Shown one piece after another: positions 27,691 to 27,834 of a stretch of DNA of 64,000 nt. Under the pieces are notes generated by a model. That model was not told where the DNA came from and searched no databases. It saw only the letters and a list, made by a program, of their open reading frames with translations. Each line of letters opens with the position of its first letter. Positions within the stretch are counted from its first letter, which is position 1. Source of the DNA: Escherichia coli (GTDB lineage: Bacteria > Pseudomonadota > Gammaproteobacteria > Enterobacterales > Enterobacteriaceae); NCBI RefSeq assembly GCF_003334385.1, contig NZ_QOWN01000006.1; one strand, 5' to 3'. The translations under genes and the position numbers were made by a program.

Positions 27691-27834
27691 TTAGATTGTT
27701 TTCTTCGCCCGCAGGCATAACATAGATAAAACTGACACATTACTGCATGAGGCACCAATATAAGGCTCGGCAGAGAAGCGGTATTCAACGTCAACGTGTT
27801 TACTCAGGACTTCTTTACTGAAAATGCCACACAT
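27691..27834 (-). CDS. yobF: small protein YobF (47 aa), upstream of cspC in same orientation
   Basis: Not in track; minus-strand [50 protein letters not shown]. Confidence 0.75.

Follow-up and report, generated by a model that had tools for sequence, protein, structure and literature searches.

The dominant evolutionary constraint on yobF, the 144-nt open reading frame in front of the cold-shock gene cspC of Escherichia coli, is on its nucleotide sequence and not on the sequence of the encoded peptide. The frame is, as we state with high confidence, yobF (b1824), a known and translated gene and the first cistron of the yobF-cspC operon of E. coli. The gene, its translation, the operon and its control by small RNAs are already known. 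What is added here is that YobF is conserved without a coding signature, which is of possible interest for work on small proteins and on cold-shock proteins; a prior statement that YobF is conserved at the level of the nucleic acid was not found in the searchable literature. We give even chances to the reading that the YobF family is conserved as nucleic acid and that yobF is a translated passenger in an ultraconserved cspC leader of about 180 nt, in which the cis control of CspC is selected and the peptide is secondary or lineage-specific. Under this reading, the selected function may be the docking of small RNAs or proteins, the stability of the mRNA, or a hairpin in front of the ribosome-binding site of cspC.

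The window, the whole stretch of 64,000 nt of E. coli DNA that was analysed, carries on the minus strand at 27691..27834 a frame of 47 codons followed by TAA (ATG at 27834-27832, stop at 27693-27691). Downstream on the same strand and separated by a gap of 12 nt (27679-27690) lies cspC (69 aa, ATG at 27678). The original prediction had placed a 47-aa frame upstream of cspC at a distance of 12 nt, in the orientation of cspC but with the strand itself unstated, and had taken it for yobF of the yobF-cspC bicistron. The coordinates were reproduced, the strand is minus and the identification is correct: the translation is exactly that of b1824, the adjoining gene is b1823 (cspC), the operon is published, and the 581-nt operon region from promoter to terminator is 100% identical to that of E. 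coli K-12 MG1655. Conserved homologues and ribosome profiling had been named as checks. Homologues were found, as described below, and ribosome profiling of yobF is reported in the literature (PMC11429745). The observation that the frame is missing from the mechanical ORF list is explained by its length, since 47 aa is below the default cut-off of 60 aa; the gene is annotated in RefSeq. The cut-off thus hides a known, annotated small gene; beyond this, the observation as such has little consequence.

Length alone says little about such a frame. The 1.6-kb stretch around yobF is overlapped by 31 ORFs of at least 20 aa, and 47 codons are not beyond chance; therefore, the reality of yobF rests on homology and annotation. 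YobF matches the Pfam family PF10736 with E = 2e-30 and 104.8 bits, residues 1-38 corresponding to positions 1-38 of the 38 positions of the model. All but three of 5426 complete E. coli genomes (5423) contain the locus, and its RefSeq label in them reads "yobF: DUF2627 domain-containing protein". A database of 5.8 billion proteins contains 74 cluster representatives related to YobF, almost all from Enterobacterales and all but one with PF10736, and when one genome per species was scanned, relatives turned up in 238 species. At every locus examined, in Serratia, Rouxiella, Brenneria and 80 further genomes, the yobF frame lies directly in front of a cspC-type gene. It should be noted that PF10736 has the identifier DUF2527 and a description line that reads "DUF2627", and that the product is accordingly a DUF2527 protein in K-12 and a DUF2627 protein in PGAP; this is a naming inconsistency only. 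A yobF-cspC locus of the enterobacterial type is deposited under CACSKA010000003.1 with the title Chryseobacterium sp. 18061, and one relative of YobF is labelled Pseudomonas lundensis. Both records are probably mislabelled or contaminated assemblies.

The likely sigma-70 promoter of the operon, read by eye, is located at 27868..27896 on the minus strand and consists of the -35 element TTGCCA (27896-27891), a 17-nt spacer and the extended -10 element TGt-GATAAC (27876-27868), 7 nt upstream of the published transcription start. Across 79 Enterobacteriaceae loci, this block, TGGCTTGCCATAAT, shows little or no variation. A scan for consensus promoters gave a different, overlapping site (GAGACA/CATAAT, 27916-27887), which may be the second promoter named in PMC13162491. 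The published transcription start is MG1655 1907615-8 (PMC7075262), about 27858-27861 in the window. The 5'UTR of yobF (27835..27861, minus strand) is therefore about 24-27 nt long (PMC7075262; given as 27 nt in PMC5230787), and its sequence is nearly invariant in the 65 distinct sequences of our alignment. It contains a weak and distant Shine-Dalgarno sequence, GAGGU (27851-27847, minus strand), whose distance of 13 nt from the AUG has been catalogued as unusually long (PMC9841429); yobF has also been scored as being without a Shine-Dalgarno motif (PMC5230787). The frame opens with AUGUG. At its other end, in UAAGGA (27688..27693, minus strand), the yobF stop codon (27693-27691) overlaps the Shine-Dalgarno sequence AAGGA of cspC (27692-27688). 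Practically every locus keeps AAGGA, regardless of whether the yobF frame stops at this site, 27 nt before it or within cspC; AAGGA is thus conserved as the ribosome-binding site of cspC and not as the stop of yobF.

The second cistron, cspC (b1823; 27469..27678, minus strand), encodes a 69-aa RNA chaperone with a cold-shock domain. Its best NCBIfam model is NF008190 (CspC) with 170.2 bits at a cut-off of 137, compared to 145 bits with the CspE subfamily model. Many RefSeq/PGAP records of E. coli name this gene "cspE", which for b1823 is a quirk of annotation naming. An intrinsic terminator read from the sequence follows at 27397..27423 on the minus strand (AAAGCCUCG-UCGAAUG-CGAGGCUUU plus a U run); it was missed by a simple terminator scan because the U tail is short, and in Rfam RF01766 it aligns with the 3'-terminal terminator hairpin of the model. 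In NZ_CP165600.1, which is derived from K-12 W3110, the match to the yobF locus (27691-27861) is split in two by IS1A. An insertion of this kind agrees with published work on aging colonies, in which yobF-cspC is a hotspot of both IS insertions and nonsense mutations (PMC13162491).

For the analysis of conservation, the yobF-cspC region was aligned from 79 Enterobacteriaceae loci and then from 65 distinct sequences, among them those of Serratia, Rouxiella and Brenneria; besides three distant loci, the set consists of the 80 that resemble E. coli most. The controls cspC and mgrB were drawn from the same loci as yobF. mgrB (28866..29009, minus strand, with a GTG start in the window), a bona fide small-protein gene of 47 codons about 1 kb upstream, served as control for statistical power. 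The variants in cspC have the classic signature of a coding sequence: column variability at codon positions 1, 2 and 3 is 0.002, 0.001 and 0.105. In codons 1-26 of yobF, the corresponding values are 0.004, 0.019 and 0.018. Between E. coli and Serratia, 6, 4 and 6 changes fall on the three codon positions of yobF and 1, 0 and 23 on those of cspC; 4 codons differ synonymously and 9 non-synonymously in yobF, compared to 22 and 1 in cspC. Counted as variant alleles, irrespective of phylogeny, there are 8 synonymous, 39 non-synonymous and 1 stop allele in codons 2-38 of yobF, 63, 5 and 0 in cspC and 80, 60 and 0 in mgrB. The contrast between yobF and cspC in synonymous and non-synonymous alleles is highly significant (Fisher p = 3e-12), and the synonymous excess of mgrB over random mutation has p = 5e-20. 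In yobF, a coding signature was not found in these codons, the synonymous fraction being 0.17 versus 0.216 expected at random (p = 0.49). Mean identity at third positions, taken over the same 34-35 loci, is 0.969 in yobF, 0.885 in cspC and 0.62 in mgrB. With no codon-shaped variation and with third positions more conserved than those of cspC and mgrB, the detectable constraint on yobF acts on nucleotides. mgrB is also far more variable than yobF (mean nucleotide identity 0.79 versus 0.97 in 35 related loci), although MgrB is a well-studied functional protein.

One stop-gain allele was observed where 2.45 were expected (p = 0.29), so that stop codons are not detectably avoided in yobF. Nor was a coding signal found in a different frame or on the opposite strand: the yobF variants distribute over the three phases as 17, 21 and 10, which is not significantly periodic (hand-computed chi-square about 3.9, 2 degrees of freedom, p about 0.14). 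The N-terminal 26 residues of YobF are nearly invariant, and the replacements that do occur include radical ones such as V9D, K7I, D15V and R19C. Of the 65 distinct sequences, 62 retain the start codon together with at least 38 open codons, and the one indel that falls within codons 1-38 preserves the frame. In DNA that is nearly invariant anyway, such retention is weak evidence either way.

Beyond this part, the frame itself varies. The yobF ORF occurs in length classes of 24, 38, 43, 47 and 56 aa, the longest running into cspC, and these arise from single-base indels just 5' of a small hairpin described below and from point stops. The form of 38 aa occurs in Klebsiella, Raoultella and Serratia and that of 56 aa in Leclercia and Cronobacter. 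The C-terminal third of YobF, frameshifted or truncated in many genera, is not conserved as protein at all, and the Pfam model with its 38 positions covers only the part before the frame-variable tail. The distance from the yobF AUG to the cspC AUG is 153-163 nt, and the DNA and AAGGA are conserved despite the changes in length. In Yokenella regensburgei, a TAT-to-TAA change leaves 24 codons and the nucleotides beyond it stay conserved; in Yersinia kristensenii, YobF is naturally truncated to 26 codons. The two truncations could serve as natural tests of the C-terminal half of YobF.

It is possible, but in our view doubtful, that YobF is a conserved small membrane protein whose amino-acid sequence is selected, so that the conservation of the DNA only mirrors a constrained peptide. 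In the literature, YobF often figures as a highly conserved small protein; there is a Pfam family for it, PF10736, the sPepFinder preprint ranks it among the most conserved small proteins of enterobacteria and infers functional importance from this, and the near-invariance of its first 26 residues points in the same direction. A constrained peptide still allows synonymous change, yet third positions are more conserved in yobF than in either control, and changes in yobF are non-synonymous as often as random mutation predicts, radical replacements included. The localization data point both ways. His-tagged YobF, detected on blots, fractionates with the membranes, whereas a GFP fusion is cytoplasmic (PMC11429745). 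The maximal Kyte-Doolittle mean over 19 residues is 1.15 for YobF (residues 25-43), compared to 2.74 for MgrB; a classic transmembrane helix was therefore rejected, the hydropathy being too low. In addition, residues 25-43, the only moderately hydrophobic segment of YobF, lie in that C-terminal part which in many genera is cut off or read in a shifted frame. An argument for a function of the peptide is genetic: the growth defect of a yobF deletion mutant at low Mg2+ was rescued by plasmid-borne yobF, but not by a version with an ATG-to-TAA exchange (PMC11429745). This dependence on an intact start codon argues that the peptide is not functionless in E. coli K-12, so that a purely RNA-based reading is too strong. 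It is for this reason that a pure leader with a passenger frame is given about even chances by us.

That yobF is a chance frame in an untranslated cspC leader from which no peptide is made, is very improbable. The substitution pattern without a coding signature, the weak and distant Shine-Dalgarno sequence, a translation efficiency that is very low relative to cspC and the frequency with which short ORFs occur by chance in this stretch would all agree with it. However, YobF belongs to a set of 17 small proteins with increased ribosome footprints under Mg2+ starvation; footprints were seen at the yobF start at low Mg2+, and the authors state that expression of YobF had been validated earlier (PMC11429745). 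Together with the His-tagged protein on blots, the start-codon-dependent complementation and the activity of a yobF::sfgfp translational fusion in Salmonella (PMC10965054), these published tagging, profiling and fusion data already contradict an untranslated leader.

That the true gene at this locus is one of the two longer frames in the mechanical ORF list, a 104-aa ORF with a TTG start (27480..27794, minus strand) or a 68-aa ORF with a GTG start (27796..28002, plus strand), is scarcely credible, and both were rejected as real genes because they are neither conserved nor annotated. Both are open in E. coli, and in 35 of 82 related loci the 68-aa frame runs without a stop through all 79 codons that were looked at. 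However, a RefSeq annotation was found for neither of them. The 104-aa frame overlaps cspC out of frame, the variation there falls on third positions of cspC, and it hits a stop before codon 50 in 48 of the 82 loci; in 41 of the 82, a stop shortens the 68-aa frame to 29-66 codons. The earlier verdict that both are spurious thus holds. The 68-aa ORF is antisense to the 5' end of yobF and to the promoter, and its openness is probably a by-product of the near-invariant DNA.

A stable, conserved RNA structure of the whole leader was rejected: the predicted fold is no more stable than that of shuffled sequences (z = +1.35), and covariation in the consensus fold of the leader is negligible (-0.62 kcal/mol). 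A helix of -17 kcal/mol is predicted within the first 90 nt, in which the Shine-Dalgarno sequence and the AUG of yobF pair with codons 12-20. It is 93% paired across species without compensatory changes, but since almost all of its pairs are invariant, covariation is uninformative for these columns. The helix was considered as a possible RNA thermometer behind the published heat induction; in silico, the accessibility of the yobF initiation region does not rise with temperature. Hemm et al. are said to have described the heat-shock induction of YobF in 2010. Compatible variation in the leader is seen only in a small hairpin, UGCC-UGCG-GGCG (27706..27717, minus strand), which lies inside yobF codons 40-43 and 14 nt upstream of the cspC Shine-Dalgarno sequence. 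RNAalifold gives the consensus pairs 152/164, 153/163, 155/162 and 156/161 (alignment columns). The closing pair varies compatibly (UG 30, CG 12, UA 10, AU 2 and GU 2, with 9 unpaired), the GCC/GGC stem is nearly invariant, Serratia, Rouxiella and Brenneria included, and the loop varies freely.

yobF mRNA is unchanged under Mg2+ starvation, so that the rise in YobF is post-transcriptional, and post-transcriptional induction by heat shock is mentioned in the same paper as earlier work (PMC11429745). In Salmonella, OxyS represses the yobF::sfgfp fusion; a kissing complex is predicted near the yobF Shine-Dalgarno sequence, by which OxyS is proposed to lower CspC (PMC10965054). CyaR also targets yobF (PMC5861431). 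Within the operon, translation efficiencies are more than 100-fold apart, yobF being far below cspC (bioRxiv 10.1101/109264). The bicistron has been documented in Salmonella (PMC8599858, PMC10965054) as well as in E. coli (bioRxiv 10.1101/109264, PMC13162491).

We combine these observations with ours in the following model. A single mRNA starts about 27 nt upstream of the yobF AUG and ends at the terminator after cspC. yobF is its weakly translated first cistron, and we regard the yobF initiation region, on which OxyS and CyaR are reported to act, as an entry point for post-transcriptional control of the yobF-cspC mRNA, OxyS having the proposed effect of lowering CspC. Selection on the 183 nt between transcription start and cspC AUG, all of yobF included, would be strong and would act on nucleotides and not on codons, and it would reflect a cis-acting role in the cspC mRNA. 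The role in cis may lie in docking sites for small RNAs and RNA-binding proteins, in addition to the hairpin just before the ribosome-binding site of cspC. The nucleotide constraint would be explained most economically by an overlap of sites at which small RNAs (OxyS, CyaR), RNA-binding proteins and the ribosome bind. The YobF peptide would then be a by-product or a secondary, lineage-variable product, with the role in growth at low Mg2+ that is reported for E. coli K-12.

This bears on how mutants in yobF are interpreted. In Salmonella, yobF and cspC form an operon and the phenotypes of a yobF deletion were due to polarity on cspC (PMC8599858). Deletion of yobF improved the tolerance to acetate (PMC4672327); this phenotype, like growth at low Mg2+ and fitness in aging colonies, belongs to those in which an effect of yobF is often confounded with polarity on cspC. 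If conservation is indeed at the level of the RNA, deletions of and insertions in yobF are to be read mainly as mutations of the cspC leader, and the YobF "family" would be a cis-regulatory element that carries an ORF.

YobF may be compared first with its neighbour MgrB. Both have 47 aa, both are encoded in the same chromosomal neighbourhood and both are induced at low Mg2+ (PMC11429745), but MgrB has a clear coding signature and a strongly hydrophobic helix, and YobF has neither.

A second comparison is with cspA, whose leader (RF01766), like that of yobF-cspC, is long and highly conserved and precedes a csp gene. The two are also alike in length, the 5'UTR of cspA having 159 nt and the yobF AUG lying 153-163 nt before that of cspC, but the cspA leader is not known to carry a translated ORF. 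The alignment to the cspA model also has a small GCC-loop-GGC hairpin shortly before the Shine-Dalgarno sequence, as in yobF-cspC. The whole yobF-cspC mRNA scores 135.5 bits against the RF01766 cspA thermoregulator (gathering score 78), but the score derives from the homologous coding region and the terminator: the leader alone (27679-27960) gave no cspA match at E <= 10, and an nhmmer profile of the yobF-cspC leader found nothing in the cspA or cspE leaders of E. coli. The leader is thus not classed as a member of RF01766. That yobF was born inside a leader of the cspA type is likewise unsupported; the 5'UTR of RF01766 aligns over yobF, but the leader alone scores nothing.

A short and poorly translated ORF in a conserved leader is found elsewhere. 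Known leader ORFs are mgtL in front of mgtA and the leader peptides of amino-acid operons, and SgrS/SgrT is a dual-function RNA; by analogy, yobF-cspC may be placed beside them. Unlike in the leader-peptide systems, there is no attenuator or terminator hairpin after yobF and no run of sensor codons is visible; cspC has a strong ribosome-binding site of its own, and a function in trans is reported for the YobF peptide. What yobF-cspC has in common with the systems named, besides the short ORF in the leader, is that post-transcriptional regulators act at the initiation region of the ORF and that its nucleotides are more constrained than its peptide.
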